From: Myxococcales bacterium | Lineage (GTDB): Bacteria > Desulfobacterota > Binatia > HRBIN30 | Assembly: GCA_037445065.1 (NCBI GenBank) | Contig: JBBILD010000003.1 | Coordinates: 64,001-128,000 of the forward strand | Length of the DNA stretch: 64,000 nt | Reading direction: 5' to 3' | In this document: piece after piece, positions 7,352-46,305 of the stretch | Numbering within the stretch: the stretch's first letter is position 1 | Layout: every line of letters starts with the position of its first letter | Notes under the pieces: model-generated | Told to the model about the DNA's origin: nothing | What the model saw: only the letters and a program-made list of their open reading frames with translations | Database searches by the model: none | Position numbers and translations under genes: made by a program

Positions 7352-8671
7352 GTGCGAGAAGTGCGTTTGGGACTCGCTGGCTTTGGCACGATCGGTACAG
7401 GGGTGGTCAAGTTGCTCGAAGGCTTGGGGCCGGCGCTCGCGAGACGTTTGGGGTTTCGGCTCAAGCTGGCTCAAGTTGCCGACGTGGACCTCAATCGCGA
7501 TCGCGGGGTAGCGGTTCCGCGCGAATTGTTCACCACGGATGCGTTTGCGCTCGTTTCTGACCCGCAGATAGACGTGGTCATTGAGCTGATCGGTGGGTGC
7601 AACGTTGCTCGGCGCCTGGTGCTAGCCGCCCTGCGTGCGGGAAAAAGCGTGGTGACGGCGAACAAGGCCTTGCTTGCGGTCCACGGCCAGGAGATTTTTC
7701 GCTCGGCGGAAGAGAACAAGCTGGACGTCGGCTTCGAGGCCAGCGTTGGGGGTGGGATTCCCATCGTTCGCACTTTGCGCCAGGGGCTGAGCGGCGACCG
7801 CGTGCGCGCCGTGTACGGCATTGTCAACGGCACCTCCAATTACATCCTGACGCAAATGAGCGAACAGGAAGCCGAATTCGAACCCGTGTTACGGCGGGCG
7901 CAGGCGGAGGGCTTAGCGGAGGCAGATCCGAGTTTCGATGTCGACGGCATTGACGCTGCCCACAAGCTGACCCTGCTCATCCAGCTCGCCTTCGGCGTGT
8001 ACGTTCCCTTCGAGCAGATTCCTACCGAGGGTATCCGGCACGTCACACCGTTGGACATTCGTTTTGCACGCGAGCTGGGCTACGTCATAAAGTTGCTTGC
8101 AATCGCCAAACTTCATGGCAGAGAAGTAGAGGCAAGGGTGCATCCCACGATGGTTCCGCGCAAACACGTTCTGGCCGATGTCAAAGGCGCGTACAACGGA
8201 ATTACCGTGGATGGCGAGGCCCTGGGGCAAACCTTTTACTACGGGTTGGGGGCGGGGATGATGCCAACCGCAACTGCTGTGCTCGCCGACGTGATCGAGG
8301 TTGCGCGGAATCGGGTGTACGGCTCGAGTGGTGCTACACCACCCCTTGGTTATCCGATCGGCGAGCAGAAGCGAGCCAGGCTGCGCCCGCTCGAGCGGTG
8401 TGAATCGGAGTTTTACTTGCGCCTGCACGCCGTAGACAGGCCGGGAGTGCTGGGCCAAATCGCGAGCATTCTGGGCCGCCGACAGATCTCGATCGCAGCC
8501 GTGACCCAGCACGGGAACGGCGAAGGCGGGGTGGTGCCGGTGGTGATGCGTACTCATCGTGCACTAGAGCGGAATTTGCGGCTGGCTTTGCGCGAGATCG
8601 CGCGCTTGCGGGTGATCCGGAAGCCGGTCGGCGTGATTCGAATCGAAGAGAGCCTGGGCGGGGCGTCGTGA
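7352..8671 (+). CDS. hom: Homoserine dehydrogenase with C-terminal ACT domain
   Basis: [64 protein letters not shown] motif. Confidence 0.96.
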
Positions 8672-11142
8672 TGGGCGCGCAGGCAAAGGGGGCGTGGGCG
8701 GGTGTGCTCCTGGCCGGAGTGCTGCTCGCAGCGCAGGAGAGCCGAGCGATCCCCGCCTGCACAGCCGCCGACGTGATTGCCCAGGAAACGAACTGCGGGC
8801 CGAGCGGGAACTGCATCATCTCGAGAACGTACGAGATCCCGGCCGATCCTCCGTGTACCTTCGACTTTTCAGGCCGCAACGTCACGTTGGCATCTACGGC
8901 GCGCTTCACCGTTGGACCGGGGGAGATGACCCTGTTGGCCGCCAACTTTACGATGTCGGCGGGAGCGCTCATTGATGGGCAAGGGACCGGGGCTTCGGGC
9001 CGCGGAGCCACAGGCGGGCGGATTCGGGTGAATGCAAGCGGCAACTGCGATCTTGGTGGAGCCAGCGGCAGCCGCTCGCGCATAGATGTTTCCTCGAACG
9101 CGGGCGGTGGGCTGATTGACATCCGTTGTGGGGGGAACGCATCGCTCAATGGCCGGCTCAATGCGGACAACCTACGGTCCACTGCAGATGGCGGTACCAT
9201 TGTGGTGGCAGCCGGGGGAAATCTCACTTCGACGTCCTCCCCACAAACGGAGATCACCGCGCGGGGTGGGTCCGCCGCACCGCGCGGCGGCGGTGCCATT
9301 TCGCTCGAGGCGGGAGGAGACATTTCCCTCGCGACGAACACGATCTTAGATGTAACCGGCTCGAGCGCTGGGAGTGTGGACATTAGTGCGGTGCGCAACA
9401 TCTCTATGGGCGGTGTTAGCGGAAACGGGAACGGTGCCGCCGGCAGTGGGGCCACAGTGACCATTTCTGCCGGTTGGGCGGCCACGATCAGCGGCGTCAT
9501 TGTGCTCAATGGAGGGACGGCCGATCCCACTGCGGGTGGCGAGGGGGGGGCGCTGACCATTGAAAGTTTGTTTGGCGACGTCGTCTTGGCTGGTAACGTC
9601 CGTGCCGAGGGGTCTGGGCCGGACGGGGACGGCGGCGAGATTGACATCTCAGCCAACGGCAGTGTGCGGATCAACCAAGGAGTGACTCTGTCCGCGCGCA
9701 GCAACGGCAGCGAGGGTGTGGGTGGCGGTGTGTCTATCTCTGCGACCCTCGACTTGGTTTCTCAAGCACAATCGGCGACCCTCATTGACGTCGCCGGAGG
9801 AGGGGGTGGTGGCGGCCTGGATATCGAGGCGGGTAGGAACGTCACGTTGCTGGGGAAGGTGGATGTCAGCGGTAACGCCGCCGGTGGGGTTGGAGGAGAC
9901 GTTTCGATTTTGGCCGGGGCAGGTGGCTCAGGATCAATGACCGTTGGGGCCAATGTGGACGTCAGTGGAGGTCCGTGTAACTTGGACTTCGGGTGTGGCG
10001 AGGGCGGAACGACCGACCTGAGCGCCTGCGATCTCACGGTGACCTCCGCCGCCACCGTTACCGCCAACGCTCCCGGTGCGGCCGGTGCTCACCAGTTGGA
10101 GGTGCGAAAGCAACTGCGGGTTGATGGGATCGTCACTGCCGTGAAAACCTTGTCTTCGGGGAGCGATGGATCTGTAACGATTGAACACCACGCTTCCTTT
10201 CCACCCGTGCTCGGCACCAATCGAGTTCGCCCTGTGCCGACGTTGAGTCCGAAGCCATTTTGTTCTCCAGACTTGAGCCAAGAGTGCTTGGTCCCCTGTC
10301 CGGTGTGCGGGAACAATGTCGTCGAGTTCCCGGAGACCTGTGACGGCGGCAACACCGCGAGCTGCGACGGCTGCAGCCTGCTTTGCCAAGTGGAAGAGTG
10401 CCCACCGTCTCAATTTTGCCCGGGCAACGTCAACTGCAGCGCTCAGTTGGGTTGCGCGATTTGTCCCGACGCACCCACGCCGACGCCCACGAACACCAGA
10501 ACGCCGACCAGTACGCCGACGCCTTCACCCACCGTCAGTGCGACGCCCACGGAAACGTTGACTGCGACGCCGACTGACACTCCTCCACCCACCGCCACGC
10601 GTTCGCCAAGCCTCACGCCCTCGCAAACCGATACCCCCTCGCCGACCCTGAGTGTTACACCGACGCAGACGGCATCCGCGACGCGGACACCGACACCCAG
10701 CCCCACTGCCTCCGTCACTCCCACGGTGAGTCCGACCTACACGGCTTCGCCCACTCCCTCTTTGTCGCCGACGGCCTCGGCGACGCTGACTTGGACCCCG
10801 ACACCCAGCGCAACGCCTTCGCCAACGGCTTCTCCGAGTGAGACCCGGACCGCCTCGCCGACCCCGAGCCCAACGGCCACGGTTTCTGTGACGCCGACCG
10901 CCTCAACAACATGGACCGCTGAGCCCATGCCCACCGACACTCCGCGAGGGGAAGTGTGTGCGGGGGACTGCGCCGGTGATGGCGAAGTGACCGTGGATGA
11001 GCTGTTGCGCATGGTCAACATTGCCCTCGGGAGCGCCCCGGTAGAGACTTGCTTGGCCGGGGATACGAACGGGGACGGCGAAATTACGATTGATGAGATT
11101 CTGCGCGGGGTCAATTCCGCCCTGTTTGGATGCGCCTCGTGA
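8668..11142 (+). CDS. Secreted modular protein: Gly-rich beta-helix-like repeats, Myxococcus-type Cys repeat, Pro/Thr linker, dockerin-like C-terminus
   Basis: Signal peptide ending SRA; repeated GGxIxIxA units; [16 protein letters not shown]...CDGCSLLC; long TPS linker; [17 protein letters not shown]...[15 protein letters not shown] twin EF-hand-like motif. Confidence 0.85.
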
Positions 11143-23844: not shown

Positions 23845-24656
23845 AGTCGGGGAGGGACGGGGGTTTGTTCGACGATCTCGGCGTGCCGGTTGCACTCGAA
23901 CCACCTGCGACGCGGATCGTGAGTTTAGTTCCGAGTCTAACCGAGCTTTTGTTTTCGCTCGGCGTGGGTAAAAACGTCGTCGGCATCACCCGTTACTGTA
24001 CCGAGCCGGCCGCAGTGGTGGACCGCCTACCCAGGGTGGGCGGGACCAAAAACCCGAATCTTGCTGCCATCCGCGCCCTGGCGCCGGACTTGGTGGTGGC
24101 GAACGCGGAGGAGAATCGCGCGGCGGACGTGGAAAAGCTCCGCCATGCCGGCCTGCGCGTGTTCGTGTCTTACCCGCGCCGGGTGCGGGAGCTGCCCGGG
24201 CTCATGCGCCGCCTGGGGCAGCTTACCGCCGCGCACGCGGCGGCGGAGCAGCTCGCCGCGGAACTCGAGGAACGGATGGCGAGAATTCACCTCGGGGGCC
24301 ACTGCCGGGTCTTTGTCCCGATCTGGCGGAACCCGTGGATGAGTGTCGGCGCGGACACCTTCGCCGCGGACCTGCTTGCGCTGTGCGGCGGGCAGAACGT
24401 TTGCGCCAGTGCTCCCGGACGCTACCCAGAAGTGGCACTCGAGCAAGTGCGAGACGCCGACCCGGAAGTCATTCTGCTTCCCGACGAGCCGTACCGGTTC
24501 GAGCGTAAGCACCTGCCGAGCTTGCAGCCCTTGGCTGCGACGCGCGCCTGGCGGCGAGGCGCGGTGTACTTCATTGATGGCAAGGCGCTCACTTGGTTCG
24601 GTCCACGCACAGCCGGCGCGATTCGTTACTTGCAGGGGCTGCTGCAAGCTTGCTGA
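23841..24656 (+). CDS. Helical-backbone metal/cobalamin-binding protein (BtuF-like)
   Basis: RIVSLVPSLTELLFSLG, VGGTKNP, PDLVVANAEEN, LPDEPYRF, IDGKALTWFGPR; GTGA overlap with the upstream stop. Confidence 0.85.
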   Translation: MKSGRDGGLFDDLGVPVALEPPATRIVSLVPSLTELLFSLGVGKNVVGITRYCTEPAAVVDRLPRVGGTKNPNLAAIRALAPDLVVANAEENRAADVEKLRHAGLRVFVSYPRRVRELPGLMRRLGQLTAAHAAAEQLAAELEERMARIHLGGHCRVFVPIWRNPWMSVGADTFAADLLALCGGQNVCASAPGRYPEVALEQVRDADPEVILLPDEPYRFERKHLPSLQPLAATRAWRRGAVYFIDGKALTWFGPRTAGAIRYLQGLLQAC

Positions 24657-24894
24657 TCTGCGAGGTCTCCGTGCTCGGCATCCCGGGGACGTGGCTCGTG
24701 AACGGAAAGCCGCGCCCTGGCTTGGATCGGAACCTGGTTCTGGGAACTTGCGGGCGCGGCGATGGTTCCGGCGCGCGCTCGCATGTGCGGCCGTCGGGGC
24801 AAGCGCCAGCGGGCATGGGTTCCGGAGCGTAGTTTGCACGTTGACTTGCCCCGCGCACTGGAGCATGCGGTGAGGTGCCCGGAGAGGGGGAACG

Positions 24895-26592
24895 ATGGTG
24901 GACAGGTGGGCTGACTGGCGGCTCGGTGCAGCCTGCCTCATCGTGTTTGCTCCCCGTCTCGCGCTCGCTTTTTCCAGTGGGATTACCGGTCTCACGACGA
25001 GTCCCGCAGGGTGTAACCAATGCCACTCGGGTGGGCAGGTGCCGGCCGTCACGTTGAGCGGGCCGACCACGGTGACACCCGGGTCCACGAACGAGTACGT
25101 GCTCGAGATCGCCCCAGTCGGTTCGCAGATTTGGGGTGGTCTCAACGCCGGTGCGAGCGCCGGCACCCTCTCGGTGGGTGGCGCCCATTCTTCCGGCACC
25201 AAGCTTTTGAATGGCGAGATCACGCACACGCAGCGCAAGGGCGGCGACGGGAATCCGATCCGCTTTTCGTTTTTGTGGACAGCGCCGACCACGGGCGGGG
25301 CGTTCGCTCTGCGGGCCTGGGGGAATGCAGTCAATGGCAATGGAGCAAATTCCGGCGACCGCGCCGCGTTCGCAAGCCTGAACGTGAATACAGGACCGAC
25401 TGCCCCGCCGACCGCAACCGTGACCCTCACGCCGACACCAAGCCCCACGAGTACCCGGACGCCGACCGCAACCCAGACCCTCCGCCCAACCTCCACCCCA
25501 ACGCCAACCGGAACCCTCACCGCAACGCCTTCTGCCAGTCCCACCCCGAGTGCAAGCCGGACGCCGAGCGCAACGCCGTCGCCGAGCGATACGCCGTCTC
25601 CGCTTCCGACAGTCACTGCTAGCCCAACGCCTTCGTCAACCAGCACCGGGACGGCAACGCCGAGCGTGTCGTTGACTCCGACGCGGACTGGGACGGCAAC
25701 GGCCAGTGCGTCTGTGACCTTTTCGCCGACCCGGTCTCCCTCGCCGAGTTCGACCGCGACGTTGTTGGCGAGCGCGACACCGACGCCGCGGGCTTCGGCC
25801 ACCGCGACGGACTCGGCGACCCCCAGCCGCTCTCCCACCCCGACCCCGAGCGTGTCGCCGAGTGCGAGTCCTTCGGCGACTCGCACGGCGACGGCCACGT
25901 TGCTCCCTACCGCAACCGCGTCGGCAAGCCGCACTGCCACGGCGCCAGCAAGCGCAACGCCTTCTGCCAGTCCCACCCCGAGTGCAAGCCGGACGCCGAG
26001 CGCAACGCCGTCGCCGAGCGATACGCCGTCTCCGCTTCCTACACTCATTGCTAGCCCAACGCCTTCGTTCACCAGCACCGGGACGGCAACGCCGAGCGTG
26101 TCGTTGACTCCGACGCGGACTGGGACGGCAACGGCCAGTGCGTCTGTGACCTTTTCACCGACCCGGTCTCCCTCGCCGACCTCGACCTTGTCGGCGAGCG
26201 CGACACCCACGCCGTCGGCGTCGGCCACCGCGACGGACTCGGCGACCCCGAGCCGCTCTCCCACCCCGACCCCGAGCGTGTCGCCGAGTGCGAGTCCTTC
26301 GGCGACTCGCACGGCGACGGCCACGTTGCTCCCTACCGCAACCCCTTCGCCAAGCCGCACTGCTACGGCCACCGCCACCGCCACCCGGAGTCCGCGGAGT
26401 TCGGCTTGTCCCGGCGATTGTGGCGGCGACGGAGAAGTTACCGTGGACGAGTTAGTGGTGCTGGTCAACATTGCGCTCGGAAGCATGCCGGTGGAAGCGT
26501 GTTTGGCCGGCGACACGAATGAAGACGGTGACATCACGATCGAGGAAATTCTGCGTGGGGTGAACGCTTCTCTGTTCGGATGCGGCACCTGA
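24895..26592 (+). CDS. Secreted protein: CxxCH Reeler-like domain, long Ser/Thr/Pro linker, dockerin-like C-terminus
   Basis: Signal peptide ending [53 protein letters not shown]...GDTNEDGDITIEEIL. Confidence 0.88.
   Translation: MVDRWADWRLGAACLIVFAPRLALAFSSGITGLTTSPAGCNQCHSGGQVPAVTLSGPTTVTPGSTNEYVLEIAPVGSQIWGGLNAGASAGTLSVGGAHSSGTKLLNGEITHTQRKGGDGNPIRFSFLWTAPTTGGAFALRAWGNAVNGNGANSGDRAAFASLNVNTGPTAPPTATVTLTPTPSPTSTRTPTATQTLRPTSTPTPTGTLTATPSASPTPSASRTPSATPSPSDTPSPLPTVTASPTPSSTSTGTATPSVSLTPTRTGTATASASVTFSPTRSPSPSSTATLLASATPTPRASATATDSATPSRSPTPTPSVSPSASPSATRTATATLLPTATASASRTATAPASATPSASPTPSASRTPSATPSPSDTPSPLPTLIASPTPSFTSTGTATPSVSLTPTRTGTATASASVTFSPTRSPSPTSTLSASATPTPSASATATDSATPSRSPTPTPSVSPSASPSATRTATATLLPTATPSPSRTATATATATRSPRSSACPGDCGGDGEVTVDELVVLVNIALGSMPVEACLAGDTNEDGDITIEEILRGVNASLFGCGT
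25521..26369 (+). repeat. In-frame tandem duplication (offset 432 bp) inside the linker-coding region
   Basis: cgcaacgccttctgccagtcccaccccgagtgcaagccggacgccgagc begins at 25521 and again at 25953; near-identity continues for about 420 bp. Confidence 0.92.
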
Positions 26593-27185
26593 GGTGAATG
26601 GTGAGGACGTCCCCGGGGGCATGTGAGCCACTCTGGGATGAAGCGGAAGCGGCAGCCGTGGCCAAGCCCCAGCGCACTGGGCAAGCCGGCGGTTCATCGG
26701 TGGAGTTAGAGTCGCGCAGCGACTTTCGTGACTTGAGGTAGTGCAGGACGTGCAGCGAGTGGTGGTACACCGCCGTGCAAGGTGGAGACCTCGAAGCGCT
26801 TCAGGGCAGCGTTGGCGCCGGTACGGGTTGCGGTTTGCGGGCAGGAAAAACGGCTGTCGCTCTCGCGTGTTGCTTCGTTGGGCGCCCGATGGAGGGCCGT
26901 ACCGTCCGTGCACGCAGTCGTTAACTGACTTGCGAAGATCCGCGTGGTGAGCCCGTATTCTCGCGCGTCATGCGCAGCGGCGCACGAGCTACGAGCCGGC
27001 TACGCAGTCTATTTGCGTTTTACTCTGCCTACCTTGGGCTGGCAGCCGCTCCGACGACCCAGCGCTCGCGTTCAGACAGGGCATACCCACGTCGTTGCGT
27101 GCCAGCGCAAGCTCGCAGATGCGGACAGGTTTGTTGACTCATCCAGTCCACGAGTGCAGACTCGGTCCGCGGGAGGGTTCTGGCC

Positions 27186-28598
27186 ATGGCGCGCAAACAG
27201 CTTTCATGGTTAACGGGGGCGACTCTGGTGCTGCTCGTCGGTTCCCGTACGGTCTTTGCCTTTTCGACGGGGATCACCGGTCTGACCACGAGTTCCACGG
27301 GTTGTAACCAGTGCCATTCGGGCGGACAGGTTCCAGCCGTGACCTTGAGCGGGCCGACCAATGTCGCGCCCGGATCCACGAACGAGTACACGTTAGAGAT
27401 CACGCCCGTGGGCACGCAGATTTGGGGCGGTCTCGACGCCGGTGCGAGCGGTGGCACCCTATCTGTCGGTGGCTCGAATTCTGCTTCGACGCAGCTCCTG
27501 AGCGGCGAGATCACGCATACGCAGCGCAAAGGGGGAGACGGAAACCCGATTCGTTTCTCCTTTCTGTGGACGGCACCAGCGGTGGGAGGAGTGTTCACGC
27601 TGCGCGCGTGGGGCAACGCGGTCAATGGGAACGGAGCGAATTCCGGCGACCGCGCCGCGTTCGCAAGTTTGAGTGTGAACGCCGGTCCGACCGCCACGCC
27701 GACCGTTACTGCAACCGCGACCGCTTCGCCCACACCGACTCCACCGGCGCACGACGCGCTTGTGCAGCCCTTGGCCCCGCGTACGATCAAGATTCCCAAA
27801 ACGGCTCCGGTGGGAGTGACCAAGAAGTTTGCGCTCAAGGTGCGGAACGCCGATCCGAGTGGCGTCCCAGCGCAAACGATTGCCTTGTCATTACTGTCCA
27901 CGACTTGCCCGTCAGGGGTGACCTTCACGGCTCCCGATTTCGACGGCAAGACCGCCGGCGAGCAAAGTCAGATTCTGCTCAACCCCGGACAAGGGAAGGC
28001 CGCAGTGGTCTCGGTGAGTGTATCGCACGCCGACATCAGCTCGCTTTTGCCCACGCTGCCCTTCCGCTGCTCCGCCACGTACCGGGCTGACGTGGTGCTG
28101 AGTGGGAACACGGACCCATCCCCGAACAACAACGAATTTCCATTGGAACTCAACTTCATTGACCTCGCCGATGCAGCCCAGCCAGCACCCGACGAGGCAT
28201 GGCTCAAGCGCGCTCCGCACGCTCGCGCCAACATCCCGTCTGGCGTGCTCACGCAAACCGTCCGTCGCACGATTCAAGTCGCCAACGCCGACACCGTGCC
28301 TCATACTCTCGGTCTAGCCGTGGACGCATCTGCGTGCCCTTGGGTGTCGGTGCTCAGCATTGACTTCGATCCCAAGACTCCGAGCATCGAGCCCAACCTG
28401 CTGGTGGCCCCCGGAAAAACCGGGAAGGCGCTGGTGCAGTTGGTCGCAGATGGGTCCATGATCTCCACTTCGAACAGCAGGGCGCCGCAGCGCTGTGTGC
28501 TCACTGCGACCGTACAAGGCCCGGCCAGTCCGGATCCGGAGCCCAGTAACGACAGTAGCAAGTTCGTACTGGATGTGATTGACAAGAACGACTTGTAG
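27186..28598 (+). CDS. Secreted protein: CxxCH Reeler-like domain plus two tandem ~140-aa beta-sandwich domains
   Basis: N-terminal domain nearly identical to that of the 24895 gene; two C-terminal repeats, each with a C-P, an RC and a DPxPxN motif. Confidence 0.88.
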   Translation: MARKQLSWLTGATLVLLVGSRTVFAFSTGITGLTTSSTGCNQCHSGGQVPAVTLSGPTNVAPGSTNEYTLEITPVGTQIWGGLDAGASGGTLSVGGSNSASTQLLSGEITHTQRKGGDGNPIRFSFLWTAPAVGGVFTLRAWGNAVNGNGANSGDRAAFASLSVNAGPTATPTVTATATASPTPTPPAHDALVQPLAPRTIKIPKTAPVGVTKKFALKVRNADPSGVPAQTIALSLLSTTCPSGVTFTAPDFDGKTAGEQSQILLNPGQGKAAVVSVSVSHADISSLLPTLPFRCSATYRADVVLSGNTDPSPNNNEFPLELNFIDLADAAQPAPDEAWLKRAPHARANIPSGVLTQTVRRTIQVANADTVPHTLGLAVDASACPWVSVLSIDFDPKTPSIEPNLLVAPGKTGKALVQLVADGSMISTSNSRAPQRCVLTATVQGPASPDPEPSNDSSKFVLDVIDKNDL

Positions 28599-28613
28599 AG
28601 TGCATTATGTGCC

Positions 28614-31502
28614 ATGACGTATTTTCTCGTCATGGCACTTGCACTCGTAGCGCTGGCAGAGCGGGTTCGTGCCGTTTGCTCGGCTTCGGAAATGGTTGGG
28701 ACCGAACCAAGCTGTACGGCGCCTGTTTGCCGAATCCGGGGCACCTACACAATCGAAGACCAGTGCTTGCTGGACTTCTCGTTCGCGGATGTAGTGTTGG
28801 AAGCCGGTGCGCGCTGGAATGTGGGGGCGCGGTCGGCCACTGTGCTCGCTCGCAGCTTCACGGTGCGTGCGGGTGCATTCGTGGATGCACGGGGCCTCGC
28901 GACGCAGGGCCCGGGGACGCGCGGCGGCACGCTGGAACTACGGGTTGGGGGGCCCGTGTTGCTCGAGGCGGGCAGCACACGGGGGCGGATCGACGCCTCT
29001 GCCACCCAGCATGCTGGGCAGATCCGCATTAGCGCGGCGGGGCCGCTCCGGATCGCGGGCCGCCTACTGGCCGCAAACCTCACCAACGGCGCCTCGGGCG
29101 GGCGGATCGAACTGGTAAGTTCGGACGCGGTGATCGTCGACAGCTCGGCCGAAATGGACTTTTCGGGCGGCCTCTCCGCCCCCGGGGGTGGAGGATCGCT
29201 CTCCATCCGGGCGGGAGCCGATGTCACCTTGGGTGCACCGCTGGCGGGCAACGGCTCGAACGGCGGGACTGTGCAGATCGAAGCCGGAGGGAAGGTTGCA
29301 GTGGGCACGGTCCTGCTGAGTGGGACGGGCGATGCGGGCAGTGGTGGAACGTTGGCGATCCGTGCCTTTCGCGACGTCGCACTGCTCGGCCCGGTGCGCC
29401 TGCAGGGAAGCACGCGCCTGCTGACAGACGGTGGGGATGGCGGAGCGCTGTCTGTCGAAAGCCGCTACGGCTCGGTGCAGGTCGGCGCCACTCTCTCGGC
29501 CGAGGGAGCCGAACCCAACGGCTTTGGCGGATCCATTCAGATCCTCGCTGCTGGTTCACTTACGTTTGCCAAAGGCACGACGGTTTCGATGCGTGCCAAC
29601 GGCTCCCTCGGTGCGGGCGGAACACTGCAGGCCTGGGCAGGTCAGCAGATCGTGCAACTGAGTGCTGTTGACGCCAGCGGGGGGGCTGAAGGCGGACAAG
29701 TGGGGTTGGAGGCACTGGGAGATCTCGTGCTTGCCGGCACGATGGACGTGCGCGGACGGGGCGAAGGAGCTGTGGGCGGCGAAGCAGGACTGCTGGCAGG
29801 GGGCTCGACCGAGGGAGCTTGGGCGCAGGGGGACCTGCGCATCTCGGGCACAGTTGATGTGTCTGGCGGGACGTGCGGGACTTCCGGTTGTGGTGCTGGA
29901 GGTTCGTTTTCGGCAACAGGATGTTCCGTATCGTTGGAAGGAACGGGCCGCGTGCTAGCGCGCGGTGGTGGGGAAGGGGGAGTTCTGACCATGACCGCGC
30001 GCTCCTCGCTCGGCGTGCAAGGGACTCTACTCGCCACCCCTAGCACGAGCGGGGGTCGGCCGGGTGTCATCCACTTCCAGGTACTGAACGGAATCGCCCC
30101 GGTGGTGAGTGGAAATGCGCTGCCGCTCCCGGTGATCACCGCGAGCCCCCCATGCACGCCTGAAACGATCGCCGGCTGTGTCATGCCGTGCCCACGCTGC
30201 GGCGACGGCCGCACGGACTACCCCGAAGAGTGCGACGATGGGAACCAGGCGTCGTGCGACGGCTGCTCCGCGCACTGCCAGCAAGAGGATTGCGCGCCTG
30301 CGGCATGGTGTGTTCCCTGCGAGGCATCCCTGGGCTGCCCTCCAGAGCCCGAGCCGCGGTGTGCGCCGCCGCCCAGCGCCACGCCGACGCCGACCGCGCG
30401 GCCGAGCGCGACGTCCACGCCGACTGCGCGGTCTAGCGCGACGGCCACCCGCGCAGTGCCAGCCGCGACGTTGACCGCAACGGAGACACCGAGAGTCGTG
30501 CCGACTGCAAGCCCGACGCCGACACCGCTCGTCAGCGGATCGGTTGCGACGCTGCCGACCCGGAGTCCCACACGAACGTGGTCGCCCACTGCCGGCCTAC
30601 AGCCTTCTCCGACGCTGCCGCCGACTGCTACAGCGAGCCCTACCTCGACCCCACGGTCACGGCACGACCTAATGTTGTTCCCGCCGCGCCCGGTGGTCTT
30701 GCGCTTGGCCCCCGGCGCTGCGCTGGTGCACAAACCGTTACCAGTGCGGGTGCGCAACATTGCCAGCGACAGCGACGTTGCGGTACCTGTGCGTGTGGTT
30801 GCGACCAGCAACTGTCCCACCGGCTCGGTCCCCGAGGCGGTAGCGTTCGACCCCGGGGGCGAAGGGAACCCGAGTGTCGCTCTCGTTCCCCCTGGGAAGT
30901 CTCGTCAAGGGTTGCTCGAAATCGAAGCCCGTGCCGAGGCGTTTACCTCGACGGGGCCGCTTTCCCCCCAGCGCTGTCGGATCGAGCTGGTGGCTGAGGT
31001 CGCGTTGCCGGGTAACCAAGACCCGACACCGGACAACAACCGGGCGTTTGTGGAAGTGGACGTGGTAGACGCGGGCGACGGGTGGCTCAGCAGGGTCCAC
31101 CAAACGGCCATCGTCGCAGCACACCCGAAGGTGATTCGGCTCCAGCCTGGTCACGATTTCGCGGAGGCTCGCTTACGACTCGGGCTGCGGAACGGGGACC
31201 GCAACGATCGGGACGGACACGCGGTGCGCCTGCTGGGCAGCGACGGGACTTGCCCGGCGGGCACGATCGGCCCGCCGTTGCTCCGACCGCGGCCGGATTT
31301 GCTGCCTGGAGCGGTGTGGGTGCGCAGTGCGGGCACGCGCGGCCTCTCGGTGCCGGTTCGTTATCGGAGAGCTGACATCCCGCTGGCCGCACCTGGTCGG
31401 CGTTACCGCTGCTTTCTGTCGTTCGAAGCAATTGGCCCTGCCGGGGACCGCGATCCGAGCAACAACACCACCGTGCTTACCCTCGACATGGTGGTCCGCT
31501 GA
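28614..31502 (+). CDS. Secreted protein: Gly-rich beta-helix-like domain, Myxococcus-type Cys repeat, Pro/Thr linker, two tandem beta-sandwich domains
   Basis: N-terminal part aligns by eye with the 8668 gene; CGDGRTDYPEECDDGNQASCDGCSAHC; C-terminal HDL..VRN..CP..PQRC..DPTPDNN and a second such repeat, as in the 27186 gene. Confidence 0.87.
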   Translation: MTYFLVMALALVALAERVRAVCSASEMVGTEPSCTAPVCRIRGTYTIEDQCLLDFSFADVVLEAGARWNVGARSATVLARSFTVRAGAFVDARGLATQGPGTRGGTLELRVGGPVLLEAGSTRGRIDASATQHAGQIRISAAGPLRIAGRLLAANLTNGASGGRIELVSSDAVIVDSSAEMDFSGGLSAPGGGGSLSIRAGADVTLGAPLAGNGSNGGTVQIEAGGKVAVGTVLLSGTGDAGSGGTLAIRAFRDVALLGPVRLQGSTRLLTDGGDGGALSVESRYGSVQVGATLSAEGAEPNGFGGSIQILAAGSLTFAKGTTVSMRANGSLGAGGTLQAWAGQQIVQLSAVDASGGAEGGQVGLEALGDLVLAGTMDVRGRGEGAVGGEAGLLAGGSTEGAWAQGDLRISGTVDVSGGTCGTSGCGAGGSFSATGCSVSLEGTGRVLARGGGEGGVLTMTARSSLGVQGTLLATPSTSGGRPGVIHFQVLNGIAPVVSGNALPLPVITASPPCTPETIAGCVMPCPRCGDGRTDYPEECDDGNQASCDGCSAHCQQEDCAPAAWCVPCEASLGCPPEPEPRCAPPPSATPTPTARPSATSTPTARSSATATRAVPAATLTATETPRVVPTASPTPTPLVSGSVATLPTRSPTRTWSPTAGLQPSPTLPPTATASPTSTPRSRHDLMLFPPRPVVLRLAPGAALVHKPLPVRVRNIASDSDVAVPVRVVATSNCPTGSVPEAVAFDPGGEGNPSVALVPPGKSRQGLLEIEARAEAFTSTGPLSPQRCRIELVAEVALPGNQDPTPDNNRAFVEVDVVDAGDGWLSRVHQTAIVAAHPKVIRLQPGHDFAEARLRLGLRNGDRNDRDGHAVRLLGSDGTCPAGTIGPPLLRPRPDLLPGAVWVRSAGTRGLSVPVRYRRADIPLAAPGRRYRCFLSFEAIGPAGDRDPSNNTTVLTLDMVVR

Positions 31503-45138: not shown

Positions 45139-46089
45139 TCAGCCGTGCGGCCCAGGGCGCCGCGGTGGGCGAGTTGGCCGTGGCGGCCTCGGCGCTCGTA
45201 CGGGCCGGCGGATGGTTGGGGTGGGCGTTCGTGTCGGAGCTAACGTGGGGGTGTTGGTCGGAGGAGCGGCTGAGCGTGTCGGGGTTGCGGCCACCGGAGG
45301 TTGCGTTGGCTGATCCGGGCACAAGCCAGGAACACTGGGTGGCATGTTGCCGACACGCGCAGGTACCGAAATGCTCACCACACCGGCGTTGGACTGCAAG
45401 TCATCCCGTTCCTCGAGCAAGATACGATTGGGGTTCGCCACGTTCACCAAGAAGTATTGCCCAGGAGGCACACCGCCGTCGGTCCGGCACAGGTCCAATT
45501 CGATGAACTGATCCGGGTAAAAATCGTCGTACACGTCTGCCCAACCAGGAGAAATCCCTTGCACTCCCTCCTGTACGCCACAATTGGCGAATACCTGTCG
45601 CTGCGGAAACGGCGCGCGCAGCGGCTCGATGTCAATCAGACAAAACGACACTTTGGGGGCTCGCGCGACGATGGGGCCGGTGAACGGATCGTCCCTACGC
45701 AGCTGGTACTCGGCAAAGTCGTTGACGTGGAAATGGTTGTGGCTCTTGTGGAACTCGAACGTGCCAGCGTCGTGTGTGCACTCCGTGCCGTCCGACCGCC
45801 GCACGATTTGCGTGGCGCGGGTGACCGGACCCGACGGAGTTTGCTCAGTTTTCCCTTGTACAATCAGCGGTCCTTGACCCAAGTTCGCGATCTTGGTGGT
45901 AAAGTAGAGTCGGCGTACCCCCTGCCGCTCCACCACTCGGGCACGCAGCGGCGGGAGGGCTTGCAAATCGGGTTTGAGCAAGCGCGGATCGTTCGGATCG
46001 CAGGGTTCCGCCAGTGCCGTGGTGCCCACGGCACTCACCGAAGCGAGCCAAAGACATCCGAAAAGCCCCACCCGAACCAAACCTCTCAT
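45139..46089 (-). CDS. Secreted lysyl oxidase-like protein
   Basis: Signal peptide ending TALA; PDL, IANLGQGP, FHKSHNHFH copper motif, KVSFCLID, QGISPGWADVY; Pro/Arg-rich tail. Confidence 0.85.
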   Translation of the reverse strand: MRGLVRVGLFGCLWLASVSAVGTTALAEPCDPNDPRLLKPDLQALPPLRARVVERQGVRRLYFTTKIANLGQGPLIVQGKTEQTPSGPVTRATQIVRRSDGTECTHDAGTFEFHKSHNHFHVNDFAEYQLRRDDPFTGPIVARAPKVSFCLIDIEPLRAPFPQRQVFANCGVQEGVQGISPGWADVYDDFYPDQFIELDLCRTDGGVPPGQYFLVNVANPNRILLEERDDLQSNAGVVSISVPARVGNMPPSVPGLCPDQPTQPPVAATPTRSAAPPTNTPTLAPTRTPTPTIRRPVRAPRPPRPTRPPRRPGPHG

Positions 46090-46305
46090 GCTGTTTCTCT
46101 CCTTGCCGTTGATCTGCACTCGCGCCGTGACGAAGCAGGGAGTGTATCCCATGACACGCCGGGTTTGGCAAGACCAATTCGCCACCCGTGCTCATTTTCG
46201 CCGCGCAAGGCGGAGCAGGCGGTCGATGCCGCCCGCCGCGCGGTGGTAGGGATCGCCTTCCGTGGTCTCGACACGGGGTAAGCCTGCGGGCATAAACACG
46301 CTGCC

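Follow-up and report, generated by a model that had tools for sequence, protein, structure and literature searches.

An uncatalogued pair of immunoglobulin-like domains terminates exported proteins of Candidatus Binatia and may act as a retention tail

Two neighbouring genes ending in domain Y

Domain Y, a protein domain of about 140 residues, is found at the end of several exported proteins of a bacterium of the Candidatus Binatia class (assembly GCA_037445065.1, deposited as Myxococcales bacterium; GTDB lineage Desulfobacterota, Binatia, HRBIN30). The DNA analysed, hereafter the window, is a stretch of 64,000 nucleotides spanning positions 64,001 to 128,000 of contig JBBILD010000003.1. Two adjacent genes of the window, P0001 and P0002, both on the forward strand, encode proteins carrying two tandem Y domains, called Y1 and Y2, at the C-terminus.

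The P0001 open reading frame (ORF; 27186..28598, +) encodes an exported protein of 470 aa, made by a signal peptide, a choice-of-anchor V domain featuring the motif CNQCH, a short linker rich in Pro and Thr (PT linker), Y1 and Y2. Residues 16–162 correspond to the NCBIfam family NF041895 (choice_anch_V; E 3.1e-36). Y1 (27750..28172, +; residues 189–329) scores 150.8 bits with the Y1 hidden Markov model (HMM) and 83.7 with the Y2-HMM, and is modelled as a beta-sandwich with a predicted local distance difference test (pLDDT) score of about 95. Y2 (28173..28595, +; residues 330–470) scores 120.4 bits with the Y2-HMM and 90.8 with the Y1-HMM, and closes the protein with the sequence DVIDKNDL. The P0002 ORF (28614..31502, +), which starts 15 nt past the P0001 stop, encodes a larger exported protein (962 aa), in which a signal peptide is followed by a Gly-rich repetitive region, a Cys-rich acidic repeat, a long PT linker, Y1 and Y2. 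Residues 528–559 match TIGR02232 (one cysteine-rich acidic repeat; E 6.2e-8), and a match to DUF4215 (E 8.6e-6) falls just below the cut-off. Y1 of P0002 (30660..31079, +; residues 683–822) scores 121.7 bits with the Y1-HMM and 76.6 with the Y2-HMM; the corresponding values for Y2 (31080..31499, +; residues 823–962) are 57.7 and 96.0. This Y2 is divergent. It ends in LDMVVR, and lacks the D-x-N-D-aromatic end. The other four Y2 domains of the genome score 120–153 bits on the same profile in three cases, 86.5 in the matrixin-like protein of contig C1.

A first-pass annotation of the window, made from the sequence, had assigned to the interval 27750–31502 an unrecognised tandem domain present in four copies in two proteins. 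The interval contains four Y copies, but also takes in about 2 kb of P0002 (28614–30659) lying outside the domain. The copies themselves are borne out by their alignment, by pairwise BLASTP (61.6, 47.4, 43.5, 31.2, 28.5 and 26.9 bits), and by the 7 additional copies which a profile made of the four recovers from another four proteins encoded in this genome (E 2e-31 to 1e-13). Residues N33, C53, P54, R106, C107, D122, P123 and N127 are invariant in the four-copy alignment. The short motifs which had been listed for the repeat are found as described: the HD/HQ/DE start reads HD, DE, HD and HQ in the four copies, the (V/L)xN(A/G/I) motif reads VRNA, VANA, VRNI and LRNG, C-P and RC mark all four copies, PxRC three. 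The DP..N(N) motif is also present, its spacing shifting by one residue among copies, and three of four copies end in DxxD, the last one in DMVVR.

An ordered two-domain unit

The genome hosts 11 Y copies in 6 proteins. Besides P0001 and P0002, these are two zinc proteases resembling matrixins, a lectin-like protein of the LamG type, and a beta-helix/PKD protein, the last carrying a single Y copy of the Y1 type. Searching 1.84 billion representative proteins with a profile of the 11 copies yielded 401 proteins at E<=1e-3 (346 at E<=1e-10, 203 at E<=1e-30), versus the 8 relatives obtained by a word-indexed protein search. Architectures were counted in 157 hit-bearing proteins examined of the 401 found. 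Exactly two copies were found in 156 of them, four copies in one. The second copy terminates at most 5 residues from the C-terminus in 152/157 proteins; in 4/157 the pair is N-terminal, and directly follows the signal peptide. Apparent stand-alone proteins, formed by a signal peptide and Y1-Y2 only, make up 3 of 24 short matches. Because of these three proteins and of the four N-terminal cases, the Y1-Y2 pair is regarded as an autonomous unit.

Profiles of first and second copies were tested on held-out domains, and the own position scored higher in 78/78 Y1 and 78/78 Y2 domains. Y1 and Y2 are thus, as judged from their sequences, old and position-specific subtypes. The copies annotated as a repeat are real, but represent two distinct subtypes arranged in fixed order, not four equivalent units. 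Both Cys residues are conserved in 100% of 156 Y1 and 156 Y2 domains, and the Arg preceding the second Cys in 99–100%. Y is a real, uncatalogued family, with two such invariant Cys per domain and the Ig-like (immunoglobulin-like) beta-sandwich fold described below. If the family is taken as an ordered pair of subtype-specific domains, each with a C...RC pattern, both pairs encoded in the window belong to it, scoring as Y1 followed by Y2. The final residue of 151 C-terminal pairs is F in 73, L in 19 and Y in 16 instances, mostly within the sequence D-K/R-N-D-F; in Y1, the corresponding D-x-N-D is followed in most cases by P, A or V. The D-x-N-D-F/L/Y ending is absent from the four N-terminal pairs.

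The beta-helix and PKD-type protein with the single copy is encoded on contig C19 (locus L008, 1486–3339, -). Its Y1-type domain is not followed by Y2, and the first Arg-Cys pattern is replaced by ...SSC; the tail is possibly decayed or truncated.

Searches against known families

The claim that the domain is unrecognised has held. Whole P0001 and P0002 and single copies, compared to Pfam, NCBIfam and PDB sequences, gave only chance-level matches, such as DUF6719 (E 0.0058, in 2/11 copies), FixG_C (E 0.011, in 1/11) and a best PDB match at E 0.31. No carbohydrate-binding module (CBM) family of Pfam matches Y in the whole proteins or in single copies. The listings and abstract openings returned by a literature search contain nothing on domain Y, nor on Binatota together with dockerin.

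The annotation had also remarked a resemblance to the ends of CARDB and DUF11 domains. CARDB, DUF11 and FixG_C (PF07705, PF01345, PF11614) have the beta-sandwich in common with Y, and the CARDB group and Y both feature a strand reading V-x-V-x-N and, ahead of the last strand, an Asp...Asn-Asn motif. Clusters of CARDB, DUF11 and FixG_C are the language-model look-alikes of Y, at 0.85–0.89, below the 0.9 mark. The likeness extends to fold and short motifs, but not to profiles. CARDB gave no profile match on Y proteins or single copies, and a six-frame search of the genome gave none at E<=1e-6 (10 candidates scored); hhalign of Y versus 15 CARDB domains of related genomes gave a probability of 0.7% over 16 columns, covering the V-x-V-x-N strand only. 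Y differs in exceeding CARDB by about 40 residues, in carrying two invariant Cys, and in being restricted to an ordered pair in terminal position. CARDB and Y1-Y2 adjoin as separate modules, CARDB coming first, in P0024 and in the protein encoded at G366:C98 4-1308.

Predicted fold and structural neighbours

Residues 185–470 of P0001 were modelled by AlphaFold2 from an alignment of 38 pairs. The Y1-Y2 model (pLDDT 94.8, predicted template modelling score 0.89) consists of two all-beta sandwiches, with seven main strands each. Foldseek matches to tandem Ig-like domains number at least 500, and their template modelling (TM) scores are uniformly low (0.22–0.40). The best match over both domains is RbmA of Vibrio cholerae (PDB 4be6, 4kkr), with Z 8.6, 210/225 residues aligned, a root mean square deviation (rmsd) of 5.7, 10% identity, and Foldseek TM scores of 0.40/0.46. 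The Z of 8.6, obtained with an independent structural aligner, is the top score among the matches listed. RbmA is a secreted scaffolding protein of biofilms made of two tandem fibronectin type III domains, and binds matrix polysaccharide. Y1-Y2 is likewise secreted and made of two Ig-like domains; unlike Y1-Y2, RbmA stands alone and is not a tail, and the match is borderline.

Further matches concern a domain of the Vpr serine peptidase (chain residues 559–701; Z 8.0–8.1, 114–115 residues aligned, rmsd 2.3–2.4), which is one of the two best single-domain matches listed, as well as the archaeal Fusexin1 (Fsx1; Z 7.7) and HAP2 domain III (Z 5.9–6.9). The Ig-like linker between the catalytic and galactose-binding domains of a Micromonospora sialidase (Z 6.6–6.8, rmsd 2.1, 98–100 residues aligned) has the highest identity, 24%, among the single-domain matches listed. 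Calx-beta (Z 6.2), CARDB 3idu (Z 6.0, rmsd 2.7, 104 residues aligned) and the FixG-related 2r39 (Z 6.0) are also listed. The modelled fold of Y is an ordinary Ig-like sandwich, from which no structural relative stands out.

By the strand order of the model, the first Cys is located after strand C, the second at the start of strand F. The two residues would thus lie at the same pole, on strands which are neighbours in such folds, and the single disulfide per repeat proposed in the annotation is plausible, as both Cys are also invariant. The same strand order puts the conserved HD, NAD and DPxPxNN motifs at the N-terminal pole and the DFD and DxND motifs at the opposite, C-terminal one, so that the Y1-Y2 junction would be lined by acidic residues. 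That these Asp/Asn motifs (HD, NAD, DFD, DPxPxNN, DxND) form Ca2+ sites is a hypothesis only.

Distribution in Binatia

Y was found in 77 of 401 sampled genomes of the Candidatus Binatia class, the remaining 324 being Y-negative. At most 9 candidates were scored per genome, and Y copy numbers are therefore lower bounds; the tallies include one unpublished genome (G372), the removal of which shifts each count by one. The domain is concentrated in the family to which the window belongs (21/25 genomes) and in seven other families. Several large Binatia families are devoid of Y among the genomes searched (0/64, 0/55, 0/94), as are the other classes of the phylum (0/195 sampled genomes).

A scan for related loci with P0001 identified three full-length relatives. 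One of them, with 37% identity including Y1-Y2, resides on a 2-kb contig (L033) of a bin labelled Planctomycetaceae, and probably reflects a binning error rather than gene transfer.

Passenger proteins and alternative tails

Pfam families were sought in 57 family members: 44 have at least one family at E<=1e-4, 13 have none, and no best-matching stretch falls within the Y region. Passengers include proteases (Peptidase_M10 in 7 proteins, Peptidase_S8 in 2, Trypsin in 1), and proteins marked by FG-GAP, DUF5122, SBBP, DUF4215, Laminin_G_3, Beta_helix, PKD, GSDH, CARDB and PPC. Several types of beta-propeller are represented, as is glucose/sorbosone dehydrogenase. Such breadth is typical of tails which decide the destination of a protein, not its activity.

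The passengers of 4 of the 6 Y proteins of the genome have a paralogue in which a dockerin-like tail is found instead. P0003 (24895..26592, +; 565 aa), located upstream of P0001, is a paralogue of the latter, featuring the same choice-of-anchor V domain (NF041895, E 3.6e-36), a long PT/S linker, and a tail bracketed by Cys residues. The two passengers are 76% identical over 165 aa, and a dockerin-like tail (26386–26589) replaces Y1-Y2 in P0003. The P0002 passenger has its counterpart in the protein encoded at 8668..11142 (+), which is 36% identical to P0002 over 316 aa and 39% over 120 aa; Y1-Y2 is replaced by a dockerin-like tail (10936–11139), weakly matched by Pfam Dockerin_1 (C3:74960-75088, 20.3 bits). 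Both matrixins match one dockerin-tailed paralogue on contig C2, with 31–44% identity. Choice-of-anchor V homologues found elsewhere have a hydrophobic-plus-basic C-terminal tail (L043, L050) or a dockerin-like tail (L037), or are fused to other enzymes; the family owes its name to its association with various anchors.

Within the Pro/Thr/Ser linker of P0003 (25521–26384), about 430 nt are directly duplicated, with 87–91% identity. The long antisense ORF extending over this linker (24027–26684) is an artefact of composition.

The choice-of-anchor V domains of P0001 (27231–27671) and P0003 (24940–25380) bear a CxxCH motif. In other lineages the domain is fused to glucose/sorbosone-dehydrogenase-like propellers (loci among L036, L039–L042, L045–L049), and in archaeal bins to an apparent heme-copper oxidase subunit I. 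Because of the motif and of these fusions, choice-of-anchor V is suggested to be a redox domain with c-type haem rather than an adhesin. Elsewhere in the window, an ORF on the reverse strand (45139–46185, -) matches Pfam Lysyl_oxidase (E 1.3e-9), a family uncommon in bacteria.

Cohesins and dockerin-like modules in the genome

A six-frame search of the genome with Pfam Cohesin gave 5 matches (C11, C4, C3:15801-16154), none at Y coordinates. A protein of 766 aa encoded on contig C11 (locus L051, 688–2988, -) has the N-terminus of a lipoprotein (...LAWLGGCGG), and also comprises a long Pro/Thr linker and three domains matched by Cohesin (46.4, 29.5 and 25.4 bits); it is likely a membrane-tethered scaffold for the dockerin-like modules of the genome. 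The C4 match falls in a 765-aa beta-propeller-like protein (L053). Dockerin_1 has 13 matches in the genome, 7 of which above the cut-off, and an iterative search with the P0003 tail identified the Cys-bracketed dockerin-like module, consensus C.GDC.GDGEVT.DE...C...D.N.DGE.T.DE...GC, in 61 ORFs. At a stricter domain cut-off (1e-15) the module lies at most 5 residues from the ORF end in 22 ORFs; many others have it right behind the signal peptide. Since the genome holds true cohesins, the dockerin-like tails have plausible partners of their own.

Y was compared with these cohesins in several ways. Cohesin (PF00963) does not match P0001 or P0002 at E<=1, nor any of the 11 single copies at E<=10. 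hhalign of Y versus the cohesins of the same genome gave a probability of 0.2% (E 0.33, 22 columns), and no cohesin chain is found among the top structural matches listed. The prediction of a complex between Y1-Y2 and a dockerin-like tail, run without controls, scored 0.00, the mark being 0.32, and speaks neither for nor against binding.

The dockerin-like module was found in 57 of the 401 class genomes: in 52/52 of the order to which the window belongs, and in 5/349 of the rest of the class. The profile was built from this genome, and may miss divergent dockerins. Y and the module coexist in 37 genomes, 40 have Y only, 20 the module only, 304 neither. The two elements therefore occur independently across genomes, which argues against an obligate pairing.

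Discussion

By analogy with dockerin tails, Y1-Y2 may be a binding tail, which retains exported proteins at the cell envelope or in the extracellular matrix through a receptor other than cohesin; we give this reading an even chance of being correct. The rigid unit, which Pro/Thr-rich linkers attach at the very end of Binatia proteins exported by Sec, would bind, once export and disulfide formation are complete, a component of the envelope or of the matrix, keeping the passenger near the cell. The route would run parallel to, and be independent of, the cohesin-dockerin route serving about 60 other proteins of the genome. Among the functions considered, that of an alternative retention or anchoring tail is the most likely because paralogues of four of the six Y-protein passengers carry a dockerin-like tail. 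Dockerin tails and cohesin scaffolds (PF00404 and PF00963) provide the closest parallel. Y lies in the same place, following a PT linker at the very end of the protein, and shares passenger families with the dockerin tails of this genome, and the dockerin tail may for this reason be viewed as the nearest functional analogue of Y1-Y2. The analogy does not concern structure: the dockerin tail measures about 65 aa and is made of helices with Ca2+ loops, Y1-Y2 is a beta-sandwich unit of about 280 aa, with an unrelated fold and an independent distribution in genomes.

Several observations weigh against the retention hypothesis. No neighbour gene which might encode a receptor or a machine is common to the four Y loci of the genome. 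The equivalence with dockerin tails is one of position, and an argument by analogy. A linker with at least 60% P/T/S/A residues precedes Y1 in 35/129 proteins only. The structural matches (Z 6–8.6) are within reach of unrelated Ig-like domains, for which Z values under 8 are common, and both the disulfide and the Ca2+ sites are deduced only from conservation and strand order. Finally, a secretion or sorting signal would account for the strict terminal position and for the conservation of the last residue no less well than a binding module.

The latter point leads to the view that Y1-Y2 is a C-terminal sorting or translocation domain, serving a lineage-specific machine for outer-membrane export or attachment, with the D-x-N-D-aromatic-COOH end as determinant. 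We regard this as improbable, though worth serious attention. The model is provided by the C-terminal domains of the type IX secretion system (T9SS; PF18962, Por_Secre_tail, of Bacteroidota), which are Ig-like and terminal. The logic is common, as in both cases an Ig-like terminal domain is found on many unrelated exported proteins of one lineage, and the T9SS hallmark of an extreme C-terminal position on diverse cargo is seen in Y1-Y2 (152/157). A last residue F, L or Y in 108/151 pairs, replaced mostly by P, A or V at the Y1 equivalent, its absence from the four N-terminal pairs, the great diversity of the cargo, and the restriction to one clade (77/401 class genomes versus 0/195 of other classes) are all in agreement with sorting. 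Unlike the T9SS domain, Y has two domains and not one, is also found in N-terminal position and alone, and belongs to a different phylum. The occurrence of the pair right after the signal peptide (4/157) and apparently alone (3 proteins) is unexpected for a pure C-terminal export signal, and no candidate machine adjoins any Y gene of this genome. Por_Secre_tail does not match P0001 or P0002 at E<=1, and neither Por_Secre_tail nor the translocon SprA/Sov (TIGR04189) was matched in the genome, which is 97.7% complete, though control genomes also gave no match to either. In a related formulation, which we hold to be similarly doubtful, Y1-Y2 would serve as address tag in a Binatia-specific pathway of surface display or sorting, in which a receptor or a processing enzyme would read the folded pair and its D-x-N-D-aromatic end, and would fix unrelated exoproteins to the envelope. 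If true, this would parallel the systems based on T9SS C-terminal domains or on LPXTG, though in another phylum and with another domain. Comparably unlikely is that the pair targets a substrate or a polymer as CBMs do, so that enzymes would reach an insoluble substrate outside the cell rather than the cell's own surface. A C-terminal beta-sandwich set behind a PT linker on hydrolases, as in binding modules, is the classical CBM architecture, and a sialidase linker domain is the single-domain match with the highest identity listed. Many passengers, however, are not hydrolases, but a CxxCH domain, propellers, and lectin-like domains which would bind ligands on their own; dockerin tails, with which Y1-Y2 alternates, serve attachment to scaffolds rather than to substrates, and Pfam CBM families are not matched.

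Even less probable is a passive C-terminal extension, a folding aid or a stalk devoid of binding role, removed after export as described for pre-peptidase C-terminal (PPC) domains. Proteases are frequent among passengers (of the 57 scanned, 7 carry M10, 2 S8 and 1 trypsin), and a Vpr peptidase domain ranks among the two best single-domain structural matches. Yet most passengers are not peptidases, P0051 features a PPC domain in addition to Y1-Y2, and a spacer would not be expected to show a fixed number and order of domains, a conservation specific to each subtype and a constrained last residue. The annotation had proposed the domain as a candidate cohesin-like or anchoring module, and the two halves of the proposal fared differently. 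Anchoring gains support only from the context, i.e. the terminal position on diverse exported proteins and the exchange with dockerin tails. The cohesin half, according to which Y would be a receptor for the dockerin-like tails of neighbouring proteins, is very hard to sustain. Size (about 140 aa) and beta-sandwich nature do recall cohesins, and Y proteins and dockerin-tailed proteins are neighbours in the window. The Cohesin profile, however, points to five other places of the genome, alignment to the resident cohesins gives a negligible probability, no cohesin is found among the structural matches listed, the dockerin-like module is not matched in 40 of the 77 genomes with Y, nor Y found in 20 of the 57 genomes with the module, and Y is borne by enzyme-like passengers, not by scaffold proteins.

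Binatia are widespread in soil and sediment, and have no cultured member; the way in which their many exported enzymes are arranged is at issue. In the genome analysed, two tails seem to be interchangeable on passengers of the same families, a dockerin-like one in about 60 ORFs, and Y1-Y2 in 6. A new protein family entry could be proposed for domain Y. The Y1-Y2 unit, being about 280 residues long, folding well in predictions, and marking exoproteins of a specific clade, offers a handle for the annotation of secretomes and a testable entry point to protein retention or sorting in Binatia. Should it prove to be a sorting signal, it would represent a new example of a lineage-specific protein-sorting system.

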